From positions 1 to 48,437 of the forward strand of contig CALRET010000001.1 in NCBI GenBank assembly GCA_943356375.1: a stretch of DNA of 48,437 bases, read 5' to 3'. How positions within the stretch are numbered: the first letter of the stretch is position 1; each line of letters opens with the position of its first letter. The notes beneath the pieces are model-generated. The model made no database searches. It had not been told where the DNA came from and worked only from the letters and a program-made list of their open reading frames with translations. The stretch is from Candidatus Nomurabacteria bacterium (GTDB lineage Bacteria > Patescibacteriota > Minisyncoccia > Phycocordibacterales > UBA9973). This document shows, in pieces, positions 2,441 to 48,437 of the stretch. The translations under genes and the position numbers were made by a program.

Positions 2441-2474
2441 TTAAAAAATAAAAAACCGGTCGCAATGACCGGTT
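2441..2474 (-). terminator. Intrinsic terminator of the thyX-like gene
   Basis: AACCGGTC GCAAT GACCGGTT hairpin. On the minus strand it is followed by TTTTTTATTTTTT. Confidence 0.7.
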
Positions 2475-2481
2475 TGTAAAA

Positions 2482-3930
2482 CTACGATGTAGTTTTCTTT
2501 TCTGTAATATCCTGTGTTCCACGTTTTATACTGAAGGCATCAGGATTCATGTCAACATGTAGAGCTAACTGAAATCCATTTTCAGTAAACCATTCTTTGA
2601 GGTAGGTGGCCATTTGCTGTTCGGGAATTCTAAATGTCGGATGTACAGTCTGCTGTGTGCGCAGTTCGCATACATATACATACTCAGGAAGGCATCCTGT
2701 GGTTTCAGTTTGAACTGTGTATCCCATAGGAATATAGTTTTGCGCCTCTTCTCTTGATATAGAGAGTAACAGTTTATTTAGTTTCTCTTTAAATAGCCAT
2801 AAATGTTTCTCTGCTTCTTTTCGGAGGGATTCAGGTAACTGTTCCATATACCACGGAAAGAAACCGTGTTGCGTATGAAGTAATGGCATTTTAAGTACCC
2901 AAGGACGATGACGCTGCATATCACGGAACGATCCGAAGTCTATCGGAAAAGTGACTCTAATTTGCCCACATTCATTTACAAGAGAGGGAAGTAGAGAATG
3001 CTGGGGTCTGTGTTCAAGAGGACCACGATATTTTTCCAAATCGTTCACATCCAGAGTATTTTTAAGTACTGTGAACGGTTGATACGGCAAGTCAAAGTAA
3101 GTAAACTCTTTTGCGCATTTTGCATTATATGCAACCTGGTCATGATATTCTTTGTGTCCAAAACTATCAGGATATGTTTCTTTTAAAGCAACAAGGACCT
3201 GATCCGCAATCTCTGAAATCTCCGAAACAGGATGCATGCGCAAAATATCGAGACGATTTTTTGCGTGCTGTAAACTGGTTGTCCAAGAGAGGTATGTTGT
3301 AACACCGGCCGGTAAGAACCCACGAGCAATATCAAATGCTTTTGCTTTAATCCCTTTTTCATAATTCAGATCAAATTTTGCAATTTCATCTGGTTCCGTT
3401 TTATCACATTTTGGTTTTGGAAAACGAAGCTTAAGATCAGGAACAAGTTCAGCAAGTACTTTCTCGTAAAACGCCATGCTTTCCTTTTGCAAATCTTCTC
3501 CTCTTTGAGTTCCGGCAGGATTTTTAGTCGCCTGAAGAGACATATTGAGATAGCGAGTGCTTGATTCTTGTCCATCATACAAAGCTGAGTCTTGAAAAGC
3601 TTTTGCAACAAGCATTGAAACATTTTCGAGACAAATAGTAGTATACCCGCATTGACCGATAGAACCGTGTCCATAGCCAACATAAAATGTTCCCATTATT
3701 TGTTTTGTTCCGTCTTTGCGAAGTTTCTCAAAATGCTTGAGAACGCTTTTAGGATCACGAGAATACAGTGCCTGTATCATCGCATTATCTTCAGGATTTA
3801 ATCCATCGATAACAATTACTCTTCTGTCTTCCGATAAGTATTTTACGGCAAGATTTATTGATTTTTGTCTGTGTCCCGCAATCTCTTCTTTATTGATTAC
3901 GGGGATTTCTAATCCATTTTGGGTTGTCAT
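2482..3930 (-). CDS. ThyX-like (flavin-dependent thymidylate synthase family) protein, long duplicated-lobe form
   Basis: The N-terminal half has GYGHGSIGQCG...LENVS...YDGQESSTRYL, matching the ThyX H-x-S...vS...Q-x-S-x-RY pattern. The C-terminal half has FRDMQRHRPW (RHR motif) and ELRTQQTVHPTFR. 482 aa is about twice a canonical ThyX monomer. Confidence 0.45.
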   Translation of the reverse strand: MTTQNGLEIPVINKEEIAGHRQKSINLAVKYLSEDRRVIVIDGLNPEDNAMIQALYSRDPKSVLKHFEKLRKDGTKQIMGTFYVGYGHGSIGQCGYTTICLENVSMLVAKAFQDSALYDGQESSTRYLNMSLQATKNPAGTQRGEDLQKESMAFYEKVLAELVPDLKLRFPKPKCDKTEPDEIAKFDLNYEKGIKAKAFDIARGFLPAGVTTYLSWTTSLQHAKNRLDILRMHPVSEISEIADQVLVALKETYPDSFGHKEYHDQVAYNAKCAKEFTYFDLPYQPFTVLKNTLDVNDLEKYRGPLEHRPQHSLLPSLVNECGQIRVTFPIDFGSFRDMQRHRPWVLKMPLLHTQHGFFPWYMEQLPESLRKEAEKHLWLFKEKLNKLLLSISREEAQNYIPMGYTVQTETTGCLPEYVYVCELRTQQTVHPTFRIPEQQMATYLKEWFTENGFQLALHVDMNPDAFSIKRGTQDITEKKTTS

Positions 3931-4719: not shown

Positions 4720-4724
4720 TACAC

Positions 4725-4746
4725 AAAGCCGAGTAATCGGCTTTTT
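4725..4746 (+). terminator. Intrinsic terminator
   Basis: AAAGCCGA GTAA TCGGCTTT followed by TT. Confidence 0.65.
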
Positions 4747-4801
4747 ATATTGTATTTTCAGTTTTCTGTGTTAGTCTGTGCTCAGACGTTATTTATATTC
4801 T

Positions 4802-5848
4802 ATGATTCCAGTGCAGTGTAAGGCAAAGTGGGATACCACTACAAAAGGATTGTGTATTCCCAGTTCAGTACAGTACACAGAAGAACAAAAGAAGGATTTA
4901 GAATGTATTATTTCCAGCTACGCAAAAGAGTGTGGTATGTCTGAAGTGGAGGTTCTGGATGTCCTTCAGAGCGCTATAACGCAATCACATGAAATGTACC
5001 AATATCTCTCTATTGGGATACTGGTGAGCATGGGTCTATATCGGACCAAGTCACGAGCGATTGTAGCTTCGGTGTTTGCTAGAAGTGAAGATGGTGTCGT
5101 GGTCCGTTATCAAAAAACAAAAAGGATGTTATTCGTTAAACGGATTGGTCCGCGTAAATTTTTTGAACGAGTGCTTGACTATATACCTGACGGTAAAGCA
5201 CGTTGGGATAATGCTCATACTTACAAAGAGAAAAAGAGTATCAAGCAAAAGACTGCGCATCCTCAGATTGAAATCGTTAAGGTGGATACGCAAAAATTTG
5301 AAGAGTTGCGGTCTCGAGTGTATGTACAGTTAAAAACTTTTCCGGTACACCGTTCTTCTCAGATCATTCTTTCATCGATAGAATCTTTCTCGGGTATACA
5401 TAAGGAAAAATTGGTACTTGCCCAAGGGAAAAGGTCTAACGGTTCTCGTGTGAGGACTAAACGGGTGTATTCTGATTTGAGGAAAATATTTTTTTCAGCA
5501 ATGAAGGAAGTGTATGGAAATGAAATTTCATTAATTTTTCTTGCATCATTTTTTACACCCAAAGGAGAGATGCCAAATCATTCCAATGTACAACTCTCAA
5601 TCAAAGACCATAAATTCCTGATTGAAAACGACAAGTATTATATGGATACATTTTTTATTTTTCTTACCCACGTCTCATTTGTTTTGAATGCATACCTCTT
5701 GTATGAAGAAGAATTTGCACGTTTGGATAGCGATACTGTAGATCTTGAAAAGAGGAAGAAGGAAATATTCGATGGGATTATTTTGAGTGCGAGAAAAAAT
5801 CTCATACATGTACATACAGAAAATAAGAGAGAAGTAGTTATTGCTTAA
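4802..5848 (+). CDS. Hypothetical protein, paralog 1, with DnaA-domain-IV-like C-terminal HTH
   Basis: The segment ...RTKRVYSDLRKIFFSAMKEVYGNEISLIFLASFF...NHSNVQLSIK follows the DnaA C-terminal pattern (R..aRqiamyL..e.t..S...Ig..fg.rdHsTV.ha..k). The N-terminus (KAKWD..K..IP...YTEE) resembles the next gene. ATG at 4802 preferred over GTG at 4778. Confidence 0.4.
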   Translation: MIPVQCKAKWDTTTKGLCIPSSVQYTEEQKKDLECIISSYAKECGMSEVEVLDVLQSAITQSHEMYQYLSIGILVSMGLYRTKSRAIVASVFARSEDGVVVRYQKTKRMLFVKRIGPRKFFERVLDYIPDGKARWDNAHTYKEKKSIKQKTAHPQIEIVKVDTQKFEELRSRVYVQLKTFPVHRSSQIILSSIESFSGIHKEKLVLAQGKRSNGSRVRTKRVYSDLRKIFFSAMKEVYGNEISLIFLASFFTPKGEMPNHSNVQLSIKDHKFLIENDKYYMDTFFIFLTHVSFVLNAYLLYEEEFARLDSDTVDLEKRKKEIFDGIILSARKNLIHVHTENKREVVIA

Positions 5849-10825: not shown

Positions 10826-10875
10826 GTATACCCTAGCACTTACTTCTTTGCAAAGAAGTAAGTGCTAGGGTATAC
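10826..10875. repeat. 50-nt perfect palindrome
   Basis: GTATACCCTAGCACTTACTTCTTTG / CAAAGAAGTAAGTGCTAGGGTATAC. The arms contain the CTAGCAC and CTAGGGT units also seen in the heptamer arrays. Confidence 0.8.
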
Positions 10876-39584: not shown

Positions 39585-41777
39585 TTAATTCATTTCATCA
39601 CCGGATCCAGCTTGTTCCTGTGTCATCGTTTTCTCTAGAACATCTCGCGCTTTCGAACCGTTTCCTGGACCCACTACTCCACGTTCTTCCAGTATATCAA
39701 TAAGTCGTGCTGCGCGTGCGTAACCGACACCTAGTTTCCTTTGAAGGTATGATGTCGACGCCTTTCCACTTTCAATGACGATTTGTCGGGCTTGTTCGTA
39801 TAGTTCATCGTCTGCATCTTGCCCACCGTCAACCATTGAAGAGAAAATTGAATTTACTGCTTCGACAGGTCCTGAAAGTTCGATTGTATCAGGTACTTCA
39901 TCTTTAAATGCTTGTACGAGGTATTTTACCACATTTTTTACTTCTTCTTCAGAGATGAATGCAGACTGTAAACGTCTTGGTTGTCCTTCACCATCAGCAT
40001 AGAGCATATCTCCGGCACCCAAGAGTTTTTCAGCTCCTGCAGAGTCCAAGATAGTACGTGAGTCGACTTGCGTTGGTACACGAAGCGCGATACGGGTTGG
40101 GACGTTTGCTTTGATAAGTCCAGTAATGACATTCACTTCTGGACGCTGGGTTGAGAGAATAAGGTGAATACCAACCGCACGAGACATTTGTGCAAGGCGA
40201 ACGATCGCTGCTTCGAGCTCTCGAGGATATGTTTGCATAATGTCGGCAAGTTCATCGATGATAATGACGATATAGGGTAGTGGGTCGATCCCTTCAATAG
40301 CTTCTTCATCTTTCGCTTTTGATTTTTCATTTTTAATTTGATTGTGATACGACTCGATGTCACGCACAGATTCAGCTTGGAGGATGTCATATCGACGATC
40401 CATTTCTTTTGCAGCCCATTTGAGAGCCAAGATACATTTCTTCGCATCAGTGATTACTGGGGTAAGGAGGTGAGGGATTTTGTTGTAGAGAGTCAATTCG
40501 ACACGTTTTGGGTCGACGAAAATAAGCTTGAGATCATCTGGACTATTGCGGTAGAGGAGTGAGGTAATAATCGTGTGAATGGTTACGGATTTTCCGGAAC
40601 CAGTTGTTCCTGCAATAAGAGCATGAGGCATTTTTGCCATATTTGCAAAATGTGCACGACCGGAAATATCTCGTCCGATTGCAACAGTAAGTGCTTTTGA
40701 CGCATTTTTGAATTTTTCGTCTGCGAGCAAGGTCCCTAGTCCGACTGTTGATTTTGTTTTATTTGGTATTTCAATACCCACAAGCGATTTCCCGGGAATT
40801 GGAGCTTCTATACGGATCGGGTGTGCAGCGAGAGCCATAGCCATATCATTCTGGAGACCGACAATACGAGAGAGTTTAACGCCGACCGCGGGTTTGAGTG
40901 CATAGCGAGTTACTGTTGGACCAATAGTAACTTCATCCATTTCGACTTCGATGCCAAAGTTAAGGAGTGTTCGTTTAATAATATTTGCATTTGCTTTGAT
41001 ATCTCCAACATTTGCTTTTCCACGATCTTGCTCAAGAAGAGAAAGGGGAGGGGGAACATAGTTACCATGGAATTTAAATCCTGAATGAGATTTAGAAACA
41101 GGCTCAAATTCATCATCAGTATCTTTTTCTTCTTTGGTACTTTTCCTACTCTCTTCTTGTAGAGGTTTTTCGTCTTCAGTATCTGCAACACTTTCTTCTT
41201 CAGATGTCTCTGTGTAGTCTGCAGTATCAGAAATAGAAACAACAGCTACAGAAGTGCTTTTTTTAAATTTATTTTTAAACCATTCAGATAGTTGTGAGAA
41301 ATCAGGTTTTACATCAAAAAGAACCAACAGAGAAATGACAAGTATTGCAGTCAAAAATATAACCCCTGCAAAAGTCTCAAAGAGTGCAACAAAAGGGAAA
41401 CCAACTGCATGACCAATAATTCCCCCACGTGCAGTTACTGATAATAGATCTAAAATTCCCAATCCCGAAAGAAAGAAAATGAGCGCACTGATTGTATGAA
41501 TTGTTGCAAGATTTGGACGTTCGCTTTTAAGAAAAGTAATACCGAGTAACGTGAGAATAAGCGGGACTAATATATACCCAAGACCAAACAATGCGGTGAG
41601 AGAGTTGTACACAAAATCTCCCGCAACACCGCCTTTGTGGAATGCCGCAATAACAAAAAAGAAAGCAAAGAGGAGACATACAATAGCGTATATTCCATGT
41701 TTTGTTTCTTGGCGAATTATTTTAAGCGGACTTTCAGTTTCCTTTTTCTTTGTTGGTTTGGTGTCGGTTTTTTTCAT
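39585..41777 (-). CDS. ftsK: DNA translocase FtsK
   Basis: N-terminal TM helices, acidic linker, motor domain with GTTGSGKS (Walker A) and IIIDELADIM (Walker B), and a C-terminal gamma winged helix (YEQARQIV...STSYLQRKLGVGYARAARLIDILEERG). Confidence 0.95.
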   Translation of the reverse strand: MKKTDTKPTKKKETESPLKIIRQETKHGIYAIVCLLFAFFFVIAAFHKGGVAGDFVYNSLTALFGLGYILVPLILTLLGITFLKSERPNLATIHTISALIFFLSGLGILDLLSVTARGGIIGHAVGFPFVALFETFAGVIFLTAILVISLLVLFDVKPDFSQLSEWFKNKFKKSTSVAVVSISDTADYTETSEEESVADTEDEKPLQEESRKSTKEEKDTDDEFEPVSKSHSGFKFHGNYVPPPLSLLEQDRGKANVGDIKANANIIKRTLLNFGIEVEMDEVTIGPTVTRYALKPAVGVKLSRIVGLQNDMAMALAAHPIRIEAPIPGKSLVGIEIPNKTKSTVGLGTLLADEKFKNASKALTVAIGRDISGRAHFANMAKMPHALIAGTTGSGKSVTIHTIITSLLYRNSPDDLKLIFVDPKRVELTLYNKIPHLLTPVITDAKKCILALKWAAKEMDRRYDILQAESVRDIESYHNQIKNEKSKAKDEEAIEGIDPLPYIVIIIDELADIMQTYPRELEAAIVRLAQMSRAVGIHLILSTQRPEVNVITGLIKANVPTRIALRVPTQVDSRTILDSAGAEKLLGAGDMLYADGEGQPRRLQSAFISEEEVKNVVKYLVQAFKDEVPDTIELSGPVEAVNSIFSSMVDGGQDADDELYEQARQIVIESGKASTSYLQRKLGVGYARAARLIDILEERGVVGPGNGSKARDVLEKTMTQEQAGSGDEMN

Positions 41778-41913
41778 TACTTTTGTTGTGTAAAATGTGT
41801 GGATAACTTTTTCAGATATATATCGAAAAGATAAATGTATTTTAGCACAAACAACAGCACAATTTCTAATTTACTTACGCTTTAAATTAAGTGTTTATTT
41901 GAATTCGCATTTT

Positions 41914-41948
41914 CTACAAGCTGTCAGCTACTAGCTACTATCTGTCCA
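41914..41948 (+). repeat. Degenerate heptamer array x5
   Basis: CTACAAG CTGTCAG CTACTAG CTACTAT CTGTCCA. Preceded by TTCGCATTTTCTA, as at 19192. Confidence 0.65.
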
Positions 41949-42038
41949 TAGGCTTGCATTTCTTTTTGTCCGATATATAATCAGGCATATCAGATGTCTC
42001 TGAGAAGAATTTTTACGATAAAAGACACTTTAGAGACA

Positions 42039-42075
42039 CTCACCTGTAGCAAGAACTGTTCTTGCTACAGGTGAG
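42039..42075. repeat. REP-like palindrome, solo copy (18-bp stem)
   Basis: CTCACCTGTAGCAAGAAC T GTTCTTGCTACAGGTGAG. Same core as the hairpins flanking the RAYT-like genes. Confidence 0.8.
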
Positions 42076-42093
42076 TAATGTCTCATACAAACT

Positions 42094-42903
42094 ATGGAAA
42101 ACAAAAGGGAAAATCAAAAAGACACCGTTTCCACACTCAATGATTCAAGGGACACTTTTACTCATGCTATAGGACTTCGAACAGAAAAGATCCTCTCGGC
42201 TCTCTATATGGTAACCGACTGTATGGAAGGGGAAGATCCTATTAAACAAAAAGTCCGCACACTCGGTGTCGAAATGGTCGCAAAAGTCAGATCTCTCGCA
42301 CTTGGGTTACCTACCGAACGACACCTTCTCTTTAGGGAAGTTTTTAATACAATAACCATGATGATCGGCTATTTGAGCGTTGCTAAAACAATCGGCTTTA
42401 TATCCGAAATGAACTACTCTATTTTATGCAAAGAATTACAGTCAGTGGGCGAATCGCTAGATAAGAATATTTCGAACGGTTTTATGTCGTTGCCGATACA
42501 GGGAAAAGGGTTTAACTTACCAGAAAACTTTTTTATAGCAGAAGATTTAGACACTTCTGATTTTAGAGGGCAAATAGCTTATAAAGGACATCTTAAGGAC
42601 AATACTAATGTCCCTAAGAATGTCCAATACAACACGGCCTATATACCAAAACCACGCTTCCAGTCTATCGGACAAAATATTCAAACAAATAAGTTTCCAA
42701 AGATAAAAATTGACAGAAAAAAGATCATTATTGAAACGGTTAAACAGAAAGAAAATGTAATGATTAAAGATGTTATTCCACTTTTCACGGATTGTAGTGA
42801 AAAAACAATTCAACGAGAATTAAGTGATCTCGTTTCTCAGGGAATACTCAAAAAGACAGGGGACAAACGATGGAGTAAATACTCACTCCAAAAGTCTCAA
42901 TAA
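42094..42903 (+). CDS. Hypothetical protein with C-terminal winged-helix/DeoR-like HTH
   Basis: C-terminus VMIKDVIPLFTDCSEKTIQRELSDLVSQGILKKTGDKRWSKYSL. Confidence 0.45.
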   Translation: MENKRENQKDTVSTLNDSRDTFTHAIGLRTEKILSALYMVTDCMEGEDPIKQKVRTLGVEMVAKVRSLALGLPTERHLLFREVFNTITMMIGYLSVAKTIGFISEMNYSILCKELQSVGESLDKNISNGFMSLPIQGKGFNLPENFFIAEDLDTSDFRGQIAYKGHLKDNTNVPKNVQYNTAYIPKPRFQSIGQNIQTNKFPKIKIDRKKIIIETVKQKENVMIKDVIPLFTDCSEKTIQRELSDLVSQGILKKTGDKRWSKYSLQKSQ

Positions 42904-43524
42904 GAGACATTCCTGACAGTACTCCGAAGACTACTAAAAGCCATATTTGACAAGCTTTTTATATTATTGTATTTTAAAATCACTCATAATCAGCTATGTA
43001 ATTTTTGACCCACTTCACCGTCATAACATACGAGTCCGATATACTAGGTGTTTTGTGTACCATTCCCAAACGAGTGAGTTATGACAAGGGTTAAATGGTA
43101 TATTTATCCACAGGTATGGTTGCGACTTCTGGCTTAGGGAGATATACTTTGATCTGTATATACAGTACTGGTATATTTTTACCCCGTATGCTAGTATATA
43201 CAAGTTTCCTGGCGCTATCGGCTAGGGACGTGCACAGAGCAATCTGTGTGAAGGCATGATCGTTGAAAACTGCATAACAGATGTGTTCGCACATCACATT
43301 AGTGATTTATTGTGCTATCGAAATAAATCACTCAACGATTATTCAGTTTTCTGTCGACATGCCATGTATCGGTCTTGTCGACAAGGCAGGTGCATATTGC
43401 GTGGCAACACGCTATATCCTTTGCTTACAATAATGAACATCGAAATATATTTTGATGTTCTGTGGAAAAAACCGATCAACTGTTTGTTCAATAAAAGGAT
43501 AAATAGTTGATCAAAACATGCGCG

Positions 43525-43530
43525 TATAAT
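43525..43530 (+). promoter_or_regulatory. Candidate -10 box (TATAAT) for the surface-protein gene
   Basis: Perfect TATAAT ~50 nt upstream of the ATG at 43580. The -35 is weak. Confidence 0.3.
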
Positions 43531-43579
43531 TTGTCGAAAATTACCAATGTAAGCGCATTTTAATCACGATAATTTAATT

Positions 43580-45436
43580 ATGACTAAATTTACAAAAATT
43601 TCAGCAGTAATACTCGGTGCAGCTATGACGTTTGGTGGCTTTGCAATTACGCACGCCGCTAACTCAGCATCACCAGCAGTAAACGCTGCATTGCTCGCAG
43701 CTGGTCTTACACAAGCCCAGATCGATGCATTGTTCCCAGTTTCTACTATGACTTCTCTTGATCTTGGTCCAACAACTTTGGAACAAGGTTCAATGGGTCA
43801 GTATGTTAAAAATTTACAAACCTTCCTCGGCATTAATGCTGATGGAAACTTCGGTTCAGGCACAAAGGCTGCAGTTATGGCTAAACAAGCTATGCTCGGT
43901 CTCGTAGCTGATGGAAAAGTTGGTCCTGCTTCAAAAGCGGCTTTCGCTGCTTCAGTAGCACCAGTTACTCCTCCAGCATCTAACGGCGGATCAAATTCAT
44001 CTTCAGAACTTGAAGGTGGAGAAGGAGAAATTTCTGATGCTGACTTTATTTCATCATATAACAATGAAGAAGTTGGTGAAGATACTGAAAATCTAAAAGT
44101 TCTTGGTCTTGAAATTGAGGCCGGTGATGATTCAGATATTGCACTCACAAGCGTGAAGGTTTCTTTCGCGGAACAAGGTGCTGGTGGTTCAGTTGACTTT
44201 GATGATTACGCAGATTCAGTTTCTATCTGGTTCGGTTCAGAAAAAGTTGGTTCAGCTGACGTTGAAGACTTCAACGAAGATAATGATATTTGGTCAAAAT
44301 CAATCTCACTTGACGGTGTAGTTATTGAAGCTGAGGACACAGAAAAATTATATGTTGCAGTTTCTTCTGTAAACAACATTGATTCAGCTGATCTCGGATC
44401 AGCAAACAATGACTGGGATGCTACTGTCACAAGTATTCGTTATGAAGACGGTGATGGAGCTCTCACAACTGACACAACAACAGGAGACATTGGAGTTGCT
44501 CGTGGATTCTTCTTTGACACAGCTCTTTCTGCAAATGATGTAGAATTAACTGTTGATGACATTACTGCTTCACCTGCAGAACAATCAGTTGAAGTTGATG
44601 AAGACGGTGGTGACGAAGCTTCTCTTTTGAAGGGAGAATTCGAAGCTGATGGATCTGATGTCACAGTAACTGAACTCGTTGTTGATATTACTCCAGCGGG
44701 AACAGGAGATGCTTACGATATTGCTTCTGATTACATCCTCATGATTGATGGTGAAGAAGTTGCTTCTGAAAATTCAGATGACTGTACTTCAGGAACATGT
44801 GATGGAACAGGAGCTGCTGTTGAATACACATTCGAAGATTTCGAAGTTACTGTAGCTGATGGTGATACTCTTGAATTTGAAATCAAGGCTGTTCTTAATG
44901 AAATCAGTGCTACATTCGTAGCGGGTGACTCATTGACTGCAAGTGTTGATGCTGATGACCTATCAGCTGAAACAGACTCAGATGATCTTACAACTTCAGA
45001 ACTTAACGGTACTGCAGCTGGTGAGGCTCAGTCATTCTACGAAGATGGATTTTCAGCTATTCTTGACGAGGGTGAATCTGAAGCGGTTGCTGCTGGTCAA
45101 AACCAGGCAGAATTCCTCTTTGTTGTAGATATTACAGCGTATGGAGATGCTGATGTTGATCTTGATGAGACAGATTTCAACGAAACTGTAGTTGGTAATG
45201 GTGTTCTTAACACTGACTATTCATACAGCGTTGAGTTGATCGATGAAGATAGTAACATTGATGAAGATGTTCCAGGAACATTTACTTGGAACGATGAGAC
45301 AGGAACTATTACATTCCGTGTCACAGTAATCACCCTCACTCTAACTGGTGCGGGAGAATACAATGTTACACTTGATGATGTTGATGGACAAGATGTTGAT
45401 GAAGACCTAACAAAGGTAATTAACTTCGTTTCTTAA
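43580..45436 (+). CDS. Secreted, highly acidic surface protein with peptidoglycan-binding (PG_binding_1-like) domain
   Basis: Signal peptide MTKFTKISAVILGAAMTFGGFAITHA. GSMGQYVKNLQTFLGINADGNFGSGTKAAV...ADGKVGPASKAAF matches the PG-binding repeat. The rest is rich in D/E/T/S/G. Confidence 0.6.
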   Translation: MTKFTKISAVILGAAMTFGGFAITHAANSASPAVNAALLAAGLTQAQIDALFPVSTMTSLDLGPTTLEQGSMGQYVKNLQTFLGINADGNFGSGTKAAVMAKQAMLGLVADGKVGPASKAAFAASVAPVTPPASNGGSNSSSELEGGEGEISDADFISSYNNEEVGEDTENLKVLGLEIEAGDDSDIALTSVKVSFAEQGAGGSVDFDDYADSVSIWFGSEKVGSADVEDFNEDNDIWSKSISLDGVVIEAEDTEKLYVAVSSVNNIDSADLGSANNDWDATVTSIRYEDGDGALTTDTTTGDIGVARGFFFDTALSANDVELTVDDITASPAEQSVEVDEDGGDEASLLKGEFEADGSDVTVTELVVDITPAGTGDAYDIASDYILMIDGEEVASENSDDCTSGTCDGTGAAVEYTFEDFEVTVADGDTLEFEIKAVLNEISATFVAGDSLTASVDADDLSAETDSDDLTTSELNGTAAGEAQSFYEDGFSAILDEGESEAVAAGQNQAEFLFVVDITAYGDADVDLDETDFNETVVGNGVLNTDYSYSVELIDEDSNIDEDVPGTFTWNDETGTITFRVTVITLTLTGAGEYNVTLDDVDGQDVDEDLTKVINFVS

Positions 45437-45449
45437 TAAATTATCTAGC

Positions 45450-45470
45450 TAATAAGAACAATTCTTATTA
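45450..45470. repeat. REP-like palindrome, divergent variant
   Basis: TAATAAGAA CAA TTCTTATTA has the same 9-3-9 architecture as TAGCAAGAA CTG TTCTTGCTA, with compensated stem changes. Confidence 0.5.
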
Positions 45471-45518
45471 CTATGATTATTTAGACATAGCTGGTTAATA
45501 CGCCTTAAAAAGTATTCA

Positions 45519-45545
45519 AAAAACACCCGAGAGGGTGTTTTTTGT
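45519..45545 (+). terminator. Intrinsic terminator of the surface-protein gene
   Basis: AAAAACACCC GAGA GGGTGTTTTTT. Confidence 0.7.
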
Positions 45546-45580
45546 TTGTCTTTTTTTCAGGATTAGTGGATTAACAGGAT

Positions 45581-45601
45581 TAGCAAGAACTGTTCTTGCT
45601 A
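45581..45601. repeat. REP-like palindrome
   Basis: TAGCAAGAAC T GTTCTTGCTA. Confidence 0.8.
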
Positions 45602-45631
45602 ACAGACTGAGTTGATATATAATAAAGATAT

Positions 45632-45760
45632 ATGTTTCGAAAAGATCCATTTATAACTGGAGAATACTATCACATCTATAATAGAGGTATTGATAAGAGA
45701 GATATCTTTAAATCCACGTTTGATCACGAAAGGTTTATGATGCTTTTATATGTAGATTAG
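45632..45760 (+). pseudogene. 5' fragment (42 codons) of a RAYT/IS200-like transposase gene, cut off by the next REP module
   Basis: Encodes MFRKDPFITGEYYHIYNRGIDKRDIFKSTFDHERFMMLLYVD*. It is identical to the N-terminus of the next gene until the hairpin starts. Confidence 0.8.
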
Positions 45761-45778
45761 CAAGAACTGTTCTTGCTA
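45758..45778. repeat. REP-like palindrome
   Basis: TAGCAAGAAC T GTTCTTGCTA. Confidence 0.8.
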
Positions 45779-45808
45779 ACAGACTAAGTTGATATATAAT
45801 AAAGACAT

Positions 45809-46414
45809 ATGTTTCGAAAAGACCCATTTATAACTGGAGAATACTATCACATCTACAATAGAGGTATTGATAAGAGAGATATCTTTAAATCCACGTTTGA
45901 TCACGAAAGGTTTATGATGCTTTTATATGTTGCAAATTCTCACGAAGACTTACGACTCGATAATCTGGTTAACCGTCTTCATAAGACATTTCAAGATATC
46001 TTAGTTTTAGATAAAGGAAAACCATTAGTTTCTATTGGTGCATGGTGTCTCATGACCAATCATTTTCACTTACTGGTACGACAAGAAGTCGAAGGTGGAA
46101 TTACAAAATTTATGAGGAAACTAGGGGTTGGGTATTCAATGTATTTCAATATTAAATATCAAAGACAGGGCGCGTTGTTCGGGGGACCATTTAAATCAAA
46201 ACTTATCGGAGTAGATGACGCATATATGCAGTATCTTTTGGGGTATATTCATCTCAATCCACTTGATATAGAGTTCTATCAATGGAAACAGAATCTTGAT
46301 AGACCAACAGAAGAGATGAAGGGATTTTTGGAATCATATAGATATTCAAGTTATCAGGAAGGATTAGCAAGGACGGTCCTTGCTACAGGCTTTATATCTG
46401 ATAAAATAGACTAA
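45809..46414 (+). CDS. REP-associated tyrosine transposase (RAYT)/IS200-like Y1 HUH protein, C-terminus replaced by a REP insertion
   Basis: HUH motif CLMTNHFHLLVRQ. The catalytic Tyr lies in LLGYIHLNPLD. After ...SYRYSSY, the reading frame runs through the hairpin (QEGLARTVLATG...). Confidence 0.75.
   Translation: MFRKDPFITGEYYHIYNRGIDKRDIFKSTFDHERFMMLLYVANSHEDLRLDNLVNRLHKTFQDILVLDKGKPLVSIGAWCLMTNHFHLLVRQEVEGGITKFMRKLGVGYSMYFNIKYQRQGALFGGPFKSKLIGVDDAYMQYLLGYIHLNPLDIEFYQWKQNLDRPTEEMKGFLESYRYSSYQEGLARTVLATGFISDKID
46365..46385. repeat. REP-like palindrome (GGAC variant) inside the 3' end of the first RAYT gene
   Basis: TAGCAAGGAC G GTCCTTGCTA. Confidence 0.8.
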
Positions 46415-47154
46415 TGCTCCGTAAAGATCCATTTATAACTGGTGAATACTATCATATATACAATAGAGGTATCGACAAGCGAGATATCTTTAAATCAAAA
46501 TTTGATCACGAAAGATTTATCATGTTGTTATATGTTGCAAATTCAGATAAACAGTTACGACTTGATAATCTTATAAATCACTCTCATAAAAAATTTGAAG
46601 AAATTCTTGTATTAGATAAAGGTAATCCACTAGTTTCTATTGGTGCATGGTGTCTCATGACTAATCATTTCCACTTACTGATACGACAAGAAGTCGAAGG
46701 CGGAATAACAAAATTCATGAAGAAATTGGGTACAGGATATTCAATGTACTTTAATATTAAATACCAGAGAAAAGGCGCATTATTCGGTGGACTTTTTAAG
46801 TCAAAACTTATTGGTGTTGATGATGGGTACATGCAGTATCTTTTGGGATATATTCACCTTAATCCACTCGATATTCAATTTTCTGGGTGGGATAGTGATG
46901 ATACGGATGGTAATAATGCCGACGAAGATGAGATTATATATGATCAGAAAGATATGAAAATCTTTTTAGAATCATATAGATATTCGAGTTATATGGATTA
47001 TATAAATATAAAAGATCCAAGAGTCGAATCGAAAATTCTTAAACTTGATGTTTTTCCAGAATATTTTAAAGACGGGAAAGCATTTAAGGATTTTGTTGAA
47101 AATTATTTTATTACTGACCCAGAAACAGGGAATGGTTTTAAATTCAAATTCTAA
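46414..47154 (+). CDS. REP-associated tyrosine transposase (RAYT)/IS200-like Y1 HUH protein, full length
   Basis: CLMTNHFHLLIRQ (HUH) and LLGYIHLNPLD (Y1). Very similar by eye to the upstream paralog over the shared region. TAATG overlap with the upstream stop. Confidence 0.8.
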   Translation: MLRKDPFITGEYYHIYNRGIDKRDIFKSKFDHERFIMLLYVANSDKQLRLDNLINHSHKKFEEILVLDKGNPLVSIGAWCLMTNHFHLLIRQEVEGGITKFMKKLGTGYSMYFNIKYQRKGALFGGLFKSKLIGVDDGYMQYLLGYIHLNPLDIQFSGWDSDDTDGNNADEDEIIYDQKDMKIFLESYRYSSYMDYINIKDPRVESKILKLDVFPEYFKDGKAFKDFVENYFITDPETGNGFKFKF

Positions 47155-47157
47155 CTC

Positions 47158-47194
47158 ATAACCTATAGCAAGGACCGTCCTTGCTATAGGTTAT
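47158..47194. repeat. REP-like palindrome (18-bp stem) closing the island
   Basis: ATAACCTATAGCAAGGAC C GTCCTTGCTATAGGTTAT. Confidence 0.85.
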
Positions 47195-47260
47195 TTGACT
47201 AGATAGTTTTGATTTCATTCTAAATATCATATAATTATCTCAGACCAAAATTTCTTTACA

Positions 47261-48437
47261 ATGAAAAAAGTTATCTTTGTTTTATTCAGTATTCTCATAC
47301 TGTATACTAGTCTTTTTGCACAACAAGTCCCGCAGAAATTTTCATATCAGGGAGTGGTTCGAGATGAATCTGGTAATGTATTGGTAAATCAAGACGCAGA
47401 TTTTAGATTTACGATTTCGGGTGATGTGCTTGGTCAACAGATTTTTTATCAAGAGACACAAGCGGTGACTACTAATCAGTTTGGTTTGATCAATGTATTG
47501 ATTGGAAATGGAACCGTTGTAAATGGATTATTTAGCTTAATTCCATGGGGAAATGCACCAATCTATTTTCTCATTGATTTAGATATTGGATCCGGCTTTG
47601 TTTCAATGGGAAATCAAGAGTTGGTTTCTGTTCCATATGCACTGTATGCTTCTTCTGGTTTGCCCGGCCCGACTGGACCTGTTGGAGAAACAGGTTTACC
47701 TGGCTCAACCGGACCTATGGGAATCCAAGGCCCATCTGGTTTTACAGGAGAGATTGGACCCACAGGCCCAACAGGAATTACTGGGCAAGATGGATTATCT
47801 GGTGGTACCGGACCTACCGGTCCAGAAGGTATCCAAGGAAATACTGGAGAAACTGGAATGAATGGCTTACCTGGTCCGACAGGTGTTCAAGGTTCAACTG
47901 GTCCTACAGGTTCAACAAATAGCATCATGCCGATTATTCGGGTATATGAATCAGATACGGTTTGGGTAAAACCAATAGATCTTAAATATGTTATTGTCGA
48001 AGTCTGTGGCGGCGGAGGCGGTGGCGGGTCTTGTGTATGGACTAGTGCTGGTGGTGGAGGAGGTGGAGGTGGTGGGTATGCTAAAAAAATAATATCCACC
48101 GATGATCTCTTGTCTATGGAAACTATAACAATTGGATTAGGCGGTACCGGTGGGTCTCTTGGTAATAATTATCCAGGTTTACCAGGGGACACTTCATTTT
48201 TTGGTAATCATTGTTCTGCTTCTGGTGGTGAGGGTGGCATGGCTGGAGCGATAAATAATGGAACAGGTGCGCTTGGTGGAATCGGGTTAGGTGGTGATGT
48301 TAATATTTCTGGCGGCGGGGGTGGCGCTTGTTCTCGATCAAATGCTGACTCACAAAGCGGTACTGGTGGGAATTCTATGTTAGGTGGTGGAGCCCCAAAC
48401 GCAAAAGGCTATGCGGGTGGTGTTAATGGTGTAAATG
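47261..48437 (+). CDS. Secreted collagen-like (GXY repeat) protein with poly-Gly-punctuated C-terminal domain (3' end runs off the window)
   Basis: Manual translation from the ATG at 47261 is open to the window end. Signal peptide MKKVIFVLFSILILYTSLFA. ~28 uninterrupted G-X-Y triplets (GLPGPTGPVGETGLPGSTGPMG...). Then VIVEVCGGGGGGGS...AGGGGGGGGGYAKK... and Gly-rich beta-like repeats. Confidence 0.7.
   Translation, partial: MKKVIFVLFSILILYTSLFAQQVPQKFSYQGVVRDESGNVLVNQDADFRFTISGDVLGQQIFYQETQAVTTNQFGLINVLIGNGTVVNGLFSLIPWGNAPIYFLIDLDIGSGFVSMGNQELVSVPYALYASSGLPGPTGPVGETGLPGSTGPMGIQGPSGFTGEIGPTGPTGITGQDGLSGGTGPTGPEGIQGNTGETGMNGLPGPTGVQGSTGPTGSTNSIMPIIRVYESDTVWVKPIDLKYVIVEVCGGGGGGGSCVWTSAGGGGGGGGGYAKKIISTDDLLSMETITIGLGGTGGSLGNNYPGLPGDTSFFGNHCSASGGEGGMAGAINNGTGALGGIGLGGDVNISGGGGGACSRSNADSQSGTGGNSMLGGGAPNAKGYAGGVNGVN

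Follow-up and report, generated by a model that had tools for sequence, protein, structure and literature searches.

A REPtron-like Y1 transposase island in a Candidatus Nomurabacteria genome, probably grown by hairpin-anchored partial tandem duplication

An island of tandem Y1 transposase genes and perfect hairpins was analyzed at about 45551-47194 of a 48,437-nt stretch of DNA from a Candidatus Nomurabacteria bacterium (GenBank assembly GCA_943356375.1, contig CALRET010000001.1, positions 1 to 48,437 of the forward strand), which is hereafter called the window. The window is the entire contig C1 of a 657-kb metagenome-assembled genome (MAG) having 49 contigs, 38% G+C and 91% completeness. 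The reading that we favor, at a probability of roughly two in three, is that the island is a REPtron-like unit (REP, repetitive extragenic palindrome) of a large Patescibacteria-specific family, which was inserted here and then grew by enzyme-linked, hairpin-anchored partial tandem duplication. A first-pass annotation made from the DNA letters alone had described the locus as a REPtron-like array of serially truncated transposase modules with dispersed solo hairpins, and its overall observation is confirmed.

The unit would consist of a Y1/HUH gene lying between two copies of its own perfect palindrome, of which the upstream copy overlaps the -35 hexamer and the downstream copy lies at the stop codon. 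It would have entered between the terminator of a peptidoglycan-binding-protein (PG-binding) gene and the promoter of a collagen-like gene. Each extra module would start 3-4 nt 5′ of a hairpin and run rightward to an arbitrary end (codon 184 in the old module, codon 41 in the recent one), and the same process ending a few nt into the stem would leave short partial copies, which are called stutters here. The features of the locus are given below.

42038-42076, no strand assigned: solo REP-like hairpin, core 42047-42067 of the GAAC/GTTC variant, 17-bp stem with GTAG...CTAC feet.
45451-45471, no strand assigned: probable diverged REP-like palindrome, TAATAAGAA-CAA-TTCTTATTA, 9-bp stem, AAGAAC-N-RTTCTT core.
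45517-45544, forward strand: left flank of the island, marked by the intrinsic terminator that ends the upstream gene and is kept in the relative with an empty site (L216).
45559-45580, forward strand: short stutter, two degenerate partial copies (caGGATTAG, tGGATTA) and then the GGAT preceding hairpin 0.
45578-45753, forward strand: module 0, copy 1 of the 176-nt repeat, with GAT, hairpin 45581-45601, promoter-like site and Y1 codons 1-41.
45755-46360, forward strand: module 1, with GAT, hairpin 45758-45778 (GAAC/GTTC), promoter-like site 45773-45800 and Y1 codons 1-184.
46361-47194, forward strand: module 2, the complete hairpin-gene-hairpin unit, with GGAT, left-end hairpin 46365-46385, gene and right-end hairpin 47158-47194.
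47195-47260, forward strand: promoter region before the collagen-like gene, flanking the island on its right side, partly conserved in the relative L093 and loosely alignable with L216.

The three modules, each a hairpin followed by a Y1 gene, were found as first described, with the ATG about 30 nt past the hairpin and open reading frames (ORFs) of 42, 201 and 246 aa. All three have sigma-70-like promoter hexamers, in which the -35 (TTGCTA) lies in the hairpin 3′ arm and is separated by a 16-nt spacer from TATAAT/TAAAAT, the ATG following about 8 nt past the -10; in module 0 the -35 is at 45596 and the -10 TATAAT ends at 45623. The module 0 ORF (45632-45760) stops inside the next hairpin, as had been said. 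The C-terminus of module 1 is likewise replaced at the next hairpin: within its ORF (45809-46414) the HUH and Tyr motifs both fall in codons 1-184, family homology ends at codon 184 (46360), and GGAT with the following hairpin is then read as a 17-aa tail. Module 2 has the GGAC/GTCC variant of the left-end hairpin, a promoter-like site at 46380-46407, the 246-aa Y1 gene at 46414-47154 and a right-end core at 47166-47186; it is complete, with a hairpin on both sides, as is usual for family members. For modules 0 and 1, tblastn found the missing distal parts neither downstream nor elsewhere in the assembly, in agreement with the earlier statement, and they are truly absent because the search of the whole assembly gives Y1 homology at this locus alone. 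The near-identical direct repeat of modules 0 and 1 is real and has a length of 176 nt (45578-45753 versus 45755-45930), the 177 nt first given being its period; its copies are 4 transitions apart and one unmatched A stands at the junction.

The palindrome itself was searched in the window and in the whole genome. TAGCAAGRACNGTYCTTGCTA matches exactly at 42047, 45581, 45758, 46365 and 47166 (0 expected, 100 shuffles), and these five 21-nt copies are three 5′ of Y1 gene copies, one closing the last gene and one solo. The copies first reported at 42039 and 47158 are genuine, and these numbers are where the extended palindromes (42038-42076, 47158-47194) begin. The genome-wide census also found the palindrome outside the window, at C21:2731 (exact, between divergent genes) and C16:5863 (variant, after a gene end), and the tally of this genome is thus 3 solo hairpins versus 4 at the Y1 locus, plus one diverged copy. 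The solo hairpin of the window lies in the divergent region of ftsK and a helix-turn-helix (HTH) gene, 18 nt before the ATG at 42094. The palindrome at 45451-45471, earlier called a compensated variant at 45450, directly follows the stop codon of the 618-aa PG-binding-domain gene; it has the common AAGAAC-N-RTTCTT core, which has 8 genome copies versus 0.65 expected, and it is probably, not provenly, a diverged copy of the Y1 hairpin. No Rfam family was found in 41500-48437 at E <= 1.

Partial duplication is seen most plainly in modules 0 and 1, a plain tandem duplication whose left edge is GAT plus the hairpin and whose right edge is an arbitrary point in codon 41. An independent MAG with almost the same hairpin (L017) has the hairpin, leader and 66 codons duplicated before a full gene. 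No microhomology is visible at the long junctions, and the duplicated unit starts outside the stem, with locus-specific flank bases. Short stutters were seen at L014, at L017, at window 45559-45580, where they are copies of the left flank and the first hairpin bases, and at C16 and C21 of this genome. When GTDB loci were first tested for stutters with 7-mers of the perfect stem, the signal was modest (24 vs 8), and a flank-inclusive test on exact hairpins was much clearer.

A metagenome scan for the exact hairpin of the window gave 80 loci (L094-L173) among the matches listed, and all metagenome hairpin counts given here have this scope. A partial copy within 45 nt upstream (3 flank bases + TAGCA...) accompanies 21/93 hairpins and a mirror-image partial copy downstream 14/93, so that 30/93 (~30%) stutter in all, while the wrong-side controls gave 1 and 0; the end points peak 7 nt into the stem. 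In the same contigs stutters occur at 27/150 REP-type palindromes vs 0/194 other perfect palindromes, mostly terminators, and in this genome a stutter-type signal occurs at 2/298 other palindromes. Stutters carry locus-specific flank and were therefore made in place. As they share a fixed start and a variable end and are specific for these hairpins, the long modules look like the rare long tail of the stutter process. The L017 analogue and a polar stutter absent at other palindromes thus bear out the suggestion of one-sided, hairpin-directed events, and together with the tandem 0/1 duplication they point to partial duplication in place of simple nested insertion, as had been proposed. One candidate for the truncation points, the in-frame hairpin site (nt 153-175) which other clades have in the gene, was rejected, as the ends lie at codons 41 and 184 and, in L017, at codon 66.

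The same counts bear on an explanation in which the palindromes are unstable without any enzyme, by slippage, template switching or unequal crossing-over, and the Y1 gene is a bystander. Palindromes are known slippage hot spots, homologous recombination is shown at the locus by the mosaic described below, and neither the junctions nor the flanks of solo copies hold a conserved motif, all of which would suit it. We nevertheless regard it as quite improbable, because outer-side stutters are confined almost wholly to the REP-type palindromes, their polarity is strict, and the duplicated unit begins outside the stem with its own flank and has no microhomology at the long junctions.

An enzyme-linked duplication is inferred in its place. 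The Y1 enzyme would nick a single strand 3-5 nt 5′ of a folded hairpin and stay linked to the 5′ end; the free 3′-OH, or a nascent 3′ end, would be extended over a variable distance; and the enzyme-bound 5′ end would then be rejoined, so that [flank + hairpin + x nt] may be duplicated as a direct repeat. The long modules would later be remodeled by gene conversion or homologous recombination between copies and be kept under purifying selection. This nick-extend-rejoin proposal agrees with the chemistry of TnpA-REP and IS608, which has a 5′-phosphotyrosine intermediate and requires single-stranded substrates (PMC3333891), and with REP clusters reiterated in tandem along with flanking DNA (PMC3733652). 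In E. coli, TnpA-REP cleaves single-stranded DNA beside REPs via a covalent intermediate, and strand transfer can build tandem BIMEs (bacterial interspersed mosaic elements; PMC3333891).

The site was then compared with its counterparts in relatives. L216 (GCA_943349135.1) is syntenic with the window over recA, ftsK, the HTH gene, the PG-binding gene, the collagen-like gene, tuf and rpsJ, and its site is empty: L216:6786-6915, against window 45437-45580 and 47195-47260, has no Y1 island. Its PG-binding terminator equals that of the window over CAAAAAACACCCGARAGGGTGTTTTTTGTTTG bar one base, and the collagen-like gene follows about 70 nt on. The 42038 solo hairpin and the 45451-45471 palindrome have no counterpart in L216, where the AT-rich and diverged alignments are loose. 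In a closer metagenome contig, L093, the same collagen-like gene is immediately preceded by a single Y1 gene of 227 aa with hairpins, and this contig begins about 40 nt upstream of the left hairpin. With the empty site of L216 and the single gene of L093, the island is best read from these comparisons as an insertion that later grew in place. In L026 a 736-nt unit is present twice and identical (2462-3197, 4724-5459), 2.2 kb apart; the duplicate is bounded by the outermost hairpin bases from left to right, and the right-side stutters differ per copy. From the empty site and this exact duplicate it follows that the hairpin-gene-hairpin unit can occupy new sites, and the caveat to a purely REPtron-like reading is that the unit behaves like an insertion sequence (IS) also.

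This mobility leads to another explanation, that the island is plain decay of an IS200/IS605-type element, in which complete elements were nested and their distal remnants were deleted via recombination between right-end hairpins. Its strengths are the empty site, the exact hairpin-to-hairpin duplicate and the truncation of copies, which is typical of such decay. On the other side, there is no tnpB and no further Y1 copy in the genome, the left and right ends are the same perfect palindrome, and the module 0/1 repeat is a simple tandem duplication; further, stutters of 8-20 nt with the same left boundary cannot be whole-element insertions. Solo hairpins also exceed genes in relatives and, among the matches listed, in metagenomes. 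Its remaining evidence, the protein class and the history of the long modules, is weighed below, and on the whole we judge it unlikely.

Solo hairpins exist as first described; their dispersal is weak in this genome and clear in the wider family. The core AAGGTYNRACCTT has 43 copies in the relative G031, with 2 Y1 genes, and 14, 13 and 13 copies in three other relatives with 1-2 genes each, the reversed-pattern control giving 0-3 copies. In G031 many hairpins are doublets 23-24 nt apart with complementary loop bases, resembling REPINs (REP doublets forming hairpins). In the metagenome scan, 84/97 exact hairpin copies have no Y1 gene within 150 nt. The stems of the 93 copies are lengthened past the 21-nt core by locus-specific complementary bases, the complementarity being 70% at +/-1 and 55% at +/-2 and fading by +/-7 (controls ~26-33%), and simple cut-and-paste of a fixed element is therefore no sufficient explanation. 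The flanks of these copies are compositionally flat and not conserved. A cleavage or target motif (A/G)GA(T/C) 5′ of the left hairpin was also considered; GGAT/AGAT is common in one subclade alone (~10/23 gene-linked copies), and with flat flanks elsewhere the motif was rejected as a general rule. Copies with GGAC...GTTC (a G-T wobble on one strand) occur at metagenome loci L099, L112, L116, L128, L136, L147 and L150. They stand midway between the variants GAAC/GTTC and GGAC/GTCC, and they suggest that selection may act on the folded single strand.

The protein was classified by its motifs, domains and predicted fold. Pfam Y1_Tnp matches both longer ORFs with 27.5 and 28.5 bits (cut-off 23), and NHFHLL and GYIHLNP are present in both the 201-aa and the 246-aa protein. 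In alignments of 18 and 49 family members H85, H87, Y146, N150 and P151 are invariant or nearly so, and so are the YHxYNRG N-terminus, the SS pair (S191-S192) and the C-terminal FPxYF. The signature of class 2 (TnpA-REP, or RAYT for REP-associated tyrosine transposase) is N-H-u-H with Y-x-x-x-N-P, and IS200 transposases have DH[VI]H and Y..NQ (PMC6006769). The motifs of subclass 2.1, compared in alignments A1-A3 with Table 1 of the same paper, are all present (NHFH, LFGG/LFQG, YIHLNP, S191-S192). An AlphaFold (AF2) model built on 49 sequences (pLDDT 90, pTM 0.88) has as its best PDB fold match E. coli TnpA-REP with its REP hairpin (4er8, E 1.6e-5), and then the IS608 and ISDra2 transposases. 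By sequence, a single-sequence search of PDB gave no match and a profile search gave merely E 0.3-0.5 to ISDra2 and TnpA-REP. No NCBIfam IS200 model matched the window proteins, no HTH domain was detected in the 246-aa protein by the domain scan, and this protein has a C-terminal domain beyond the core, unlike an IS200 protein (subclass 1.1, Y[IV]ENQ) of the core only (~150 aa). By its motifs and by weak pairwise similarity it is a RAYT-type protein of TnpA-Y1 class 2, probably closest to subclass 2.1, so the first placement as RAYT-like over IS200-like agrees with both motifs and fold. The same class 2 motifs (NHFH, YIHLNP), which are not DH[VI]H and Y...Q (PMC6006769), count against decay of an IS200/IS605-type element. 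The nearest homologs in cultured bacteria are "transposases" of Rhodospirillum (R. rubrum) and Legionella plasmids with 26-31% identity and the same motifs; one of the two plasmid homologs has a Bac_DnaA_C/HTH-like tail, and the Patescibacteria family has an insertion of ~26 aa ahead of the HUH motif as compared with the proteobacterial homologs.

The two long modules have an older history. Module 1 and module 2 differ by a synonymous divergence (dS) of 1.28 at an omega (ratio of nonsynonymous to synonymous rates) of 0.11, module 1 and the L093 gene by dS 0.87 and omega 0.06, and module 2 and the L093 gene by dS 1.18 and omega 0.09; the three proteins form one clade with support 0.94. Module 1 has 184 codons without stops or frameshifts and keeps the HUH and Tyr motifs, which makes it likely that the gene is still expressed and of use. 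Mosaic similarity is seen in the L093 gene, which resembles module 2 over alignment columns 250-330 and again over its final 45 nt (44/45 identical) and module 1 over columns 400-690; this indicates gene conversion or recombination among copies or lineages. By this mosaic relative to a syntenic single-copy locus, homologous recombination has also shaped the site. The simpler idea that the L093 gene is a one-crossover collapse of two modules was rejected, as the informative sites (71, 54 and 28) are intermingled and form no more than local runs, so that there is no single switch point. Module 2 may be the product of an in-place duplication, or else a diverged copy may have been joined one-sidedly at the hairpin and resolved by homology in the conserved tail. 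The word "serially" in the first description does not hold for these modules, which are old (dS ~1.3), under purifying selection and mosaic and are thus not serial recent truncations.

A meeting of two distinct elements at one site would fit the mosaic and the dS of 1.3 that separates module 1 from module 2; this is the remaining point for the decay of nested IS200/IS605-type elements, although a truncated copy with omega 0.06-0.11 and no stops is not expected of it. The divergence also bears on the possibility of an assembly artefact, by mis-joining of strain variants or mis-assembly of repeats. The genome is a MAG of 49 contigs, and the break in the related contig L093 comes about 40 nt before its left hairpin, but the copies differ (4 transitions/176 nt; modules 1/2 dS ~1.3), the junctions, in which codon 41 or 184 is joined to GAT/GGAT plus the hairpin, are in no single-copy arrangement, the independent assembly L017 has the same architecture, and module 1 is an open frame under purifying selection. 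An artefact is hence very improbable.

The hairpin variants follow the modules. GAAC/GTTC stands before modules 0 and 1, at the solo copy 42047 and at C21, and GGAC/GTCC stands on both sides of module 2 and in the C16 variant; this pairing fits the cognate-pair rule of REP/RAYT systems and rests on seven copies. A wider joint reading may be put forward, tentatively and with far more doubt than belief, in which stutters and modules are in-vivo footprints of the nick-extend-rejoin process and the locus has copied itself into a system of two enzymes and two hairpins. Within it the footprints would map cleavage to 3-5 nt outside the stem, on perfect palindromes; the 201-aa promoter-bearing paralog without the C-terminal domain (omega ~0.1) would pair with GAAC/GTTC (2/3 solo copies); and the full-length enzyme would serve the GGAC/GTCC variant. 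All three parts share the doubtful standing of the whole.

Several results weigh against the favored reading of a REPtron-like unit grown by hairpin-anchored duplication. The NCBIfam equivalog REP_Tyr_transpos (NF047646) scores 23.5 and 25.8 bits vs a cut-off of 80, and the protein is therefore not an ortholog of E. coli RayT. The palindromes are perfect, and a GT[AG]G foot is not conserved: only the solo 42038 copy and one side of the module 2 hairpin have GTAG, the other feet being TTAG, ATAG and TAAG. E. coli TnpA-REP requires both GTAG and a stem mismatch (PMC3333891). This genome has only 3 solo hairpins. Long partial modules are rare (1/80 other loci), and one junction base is left unexplained, the A at 45754, the duplication junction of L017 likewise having an extra A. 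Finally, in view of the dS of ~1.3 and the mosaic with its 44/45 tail, module 2 could have come by recombination with a diverged copy and not by duplication in place.

The family was surveyed across Patescibacteria. The first search gave >2,600 homologous proteins, and 586 stretches were confirmed in GTDB representatives; where a source is named, it is nearly always a Patescibacteria or Parcubacteria-type MAG. Of 41 related genomes, 18 carry 1-7 Y1 copies, mostly 36-50% and up to 72% identical to the query. The layout was determined on 80 homologous GTDB loci. At 78/80 a word of at least 10 nt is common to the upstream and downstream flanks (median common length 21 nt), the palindrome ending a median of 27 nt before the ATG and the same palindrome lying on or just past the stop codon; it differs between genomes around a [CT]AAGG-N5-CCTT[GA] theme. 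A single gene is present at 77/80 loci, so the clustered transposase array, first taken as a hallmark, is not typical of the family.

In ~20/80 loci, of more distant clades, the Y1 gene itself contains a third, in-frame palindrome copy at the fixed position nt 153-175, ahead of the HUH motif and within the ~26-aa insertion, and this copy co-varies with the flanking ones (L035, L036, L041, L044, L050, L054-L056, L058, L060, L063, L068, L070, L075, L077, L079-L081 and others); the Y1 genes of the window have none. One family member is immediately preceded by another, highly divergent Y1 gene with 26% identity (L016:1964-2323), giving a tandem pair from different Y1 subfamilies.

Among known systems the locus is most like the REPtrons of E. 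coli (YafM/RayT, 4ER8) and the RAYTs of Pseudomonas and Stenotrophomonas (Nunvar 2010; Ton-Hoang 2012, PMC3333891; Bertels 2017, PMC5581495). It shares with them the Y1/HUH protein with Y-x-x-x-N-P and best fold 4er8, the gene bracketed by its cognate hairpin with an own variant per paralog or genome, the gene-less dispersed hairpins, including the 23-24-nt-spaced doublets of G031, the low gene copy number with divergent paralogs, and the tandem amplification of hairpin units, which in E. coli is attributed to strand transfer. It differs in its very low sequence similarity (equivalog 23-26 bits vs 80), the ~230-250-aa protein with an extra C-terminal domain, the Patescibacteria host, the short perfect hairpins without bulge or conserved GTAG, the upstream hairpin overlapping the -35, the third in-frame copy of many relatives, and solo copies of only tens per genome, 3 here. 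Proteobacterial REP systems have hundreds of copies per genome.

TnpA-Y1 subclass 2.1 of Quentin et al. (2018, PMC6006769) is identical to RAYT group 1 (Bertels 2017) and approximately to the TIRYT/TIRtrons (Di Nocera 2013, PMC3733652); it has the motifs NH[VYF]H, W[EQ]/FQ and YIELNP/Y[IV]HLNP and a median length of ~238 aa, and it is described as without associated REP-like structures (PMC6006769). NH[YF]H, LF-G (at the FQ position), Y[IV]HLNP and the tail SS are shared with it, and the R. rubrum and Legionella plasmid homologs (26-31%) carry its motifs; unlike in that subclass, hairpins flank nearly every gene here, ~26 aa are inserted before HUH and the 246-aa protein has no detectable HTH tail.

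With IS200/IS605 elements (IS608, ISDra2) the unit has in common the HUH/Y1 fold, hairpins near both gene ends, evidence that the whole unit can take new sites, and the lack of an evident target-site duplication. It departs from them in its class 2 motifs in place of Y...Q, in having no tnpB-sized ORF nearby, in ends that are identical perfect palindromes and not distinct imperfect left and right ends, and in having no conserved target tetra- or pentanucleotide and no multiple near-identical copies in this genome, the exact duplicate of L026 being the exception in the family. As in the tandem REP clusters of Di Nocera 2013, hairpin units are re-copied with variable neighboring DNA, but the reiterated flank here is the promoter and 5′ part of the own gene of the enzyme, which gives promoter-bearing truncated paralogs. 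As in the REP insertions of subclass 2.4 (Quentin 2018), in-frame hairpins are tolerated in the transposase gene, although in the relatives they stand before HUH and not between HUH and Tyr. Judged on its sequence, the system resembles a REPtron in how it works, and its motifs are those that define subclass 2.1; it lacks two defining features of canonical REP/RAYT, the GT[AG]G foot with imperfect stem and the equivalog similarity, and it departs from the absence of REPs described for subclass 2.1.

To our knowledge nearly all known REP/RAYT systems come from Proteobacteria and a small number of other phyla, and how RAYTs spread or remodel REPs in cells is, as far as we know, still unsettled. 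In the literature searched no description of such systems in Patescibacteria was found; neither Patescibacteria nor Parcubacteria nor CPR (Candidate Phyla Radiation) is mentioned in the main TnpA-Y1 survey, and one preprint merely lists a KEGG RAYT match in an archaeon. The locus displays three states of one site, namely empty, single gene and array, and connects the truncated modules with a polar stutter that is family-wide and specific to these hairpins. It thus offers a genomic footprint of where a RAYT-like enzyme probably acts, and a testable prediction for the cut position and duplication mode of a little-studied enzyme family. The process can duplicate a promoter with a gene fragment, and a truncated paralog kept by selection in a 0.7-Mb genome may mark a possible route to new genes. 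If the joint reading were true, a two-enzyme, two-hairpin system would have been born from an enzyme copying its own gene.

Some minor observations were also made. The collagen-like gene, which adjoins the island site in L093 and L216 too, is an open-ended ORF at 47261-48437 for a secreted collagen-like (G-X-Y) protein with a glycine-rich C-terminal part. A second palindrome family of ~16 copies, (G)TATACCCGCACAC-N8-TTGCAA-N8-GTGTGCGGGTATA(C), is unrelated to the Y1 hairpin; it often lies just upstream of gene starts and resembles a common operator or promoter element (window 10826-10875; C3:13969, C3:30807, C11:12080, C16:3251, C27:3554/4668/8148, C38:102, C39:5600, C46:1414, C47:2262 and others). 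A third family of 7 copies, TCAAGAWYTGTGACGGCCGTCACARWTCTTGA, has outer arms that resemble the REP core (CAAGAACTGT) and is found at C5:4649, C6:17619, C6:19706, C15:6637, C45:2663, C17:645 and C32:4653; it could be an orphan REP-like family without a Y1 gene in the assembled 91% of the genome.

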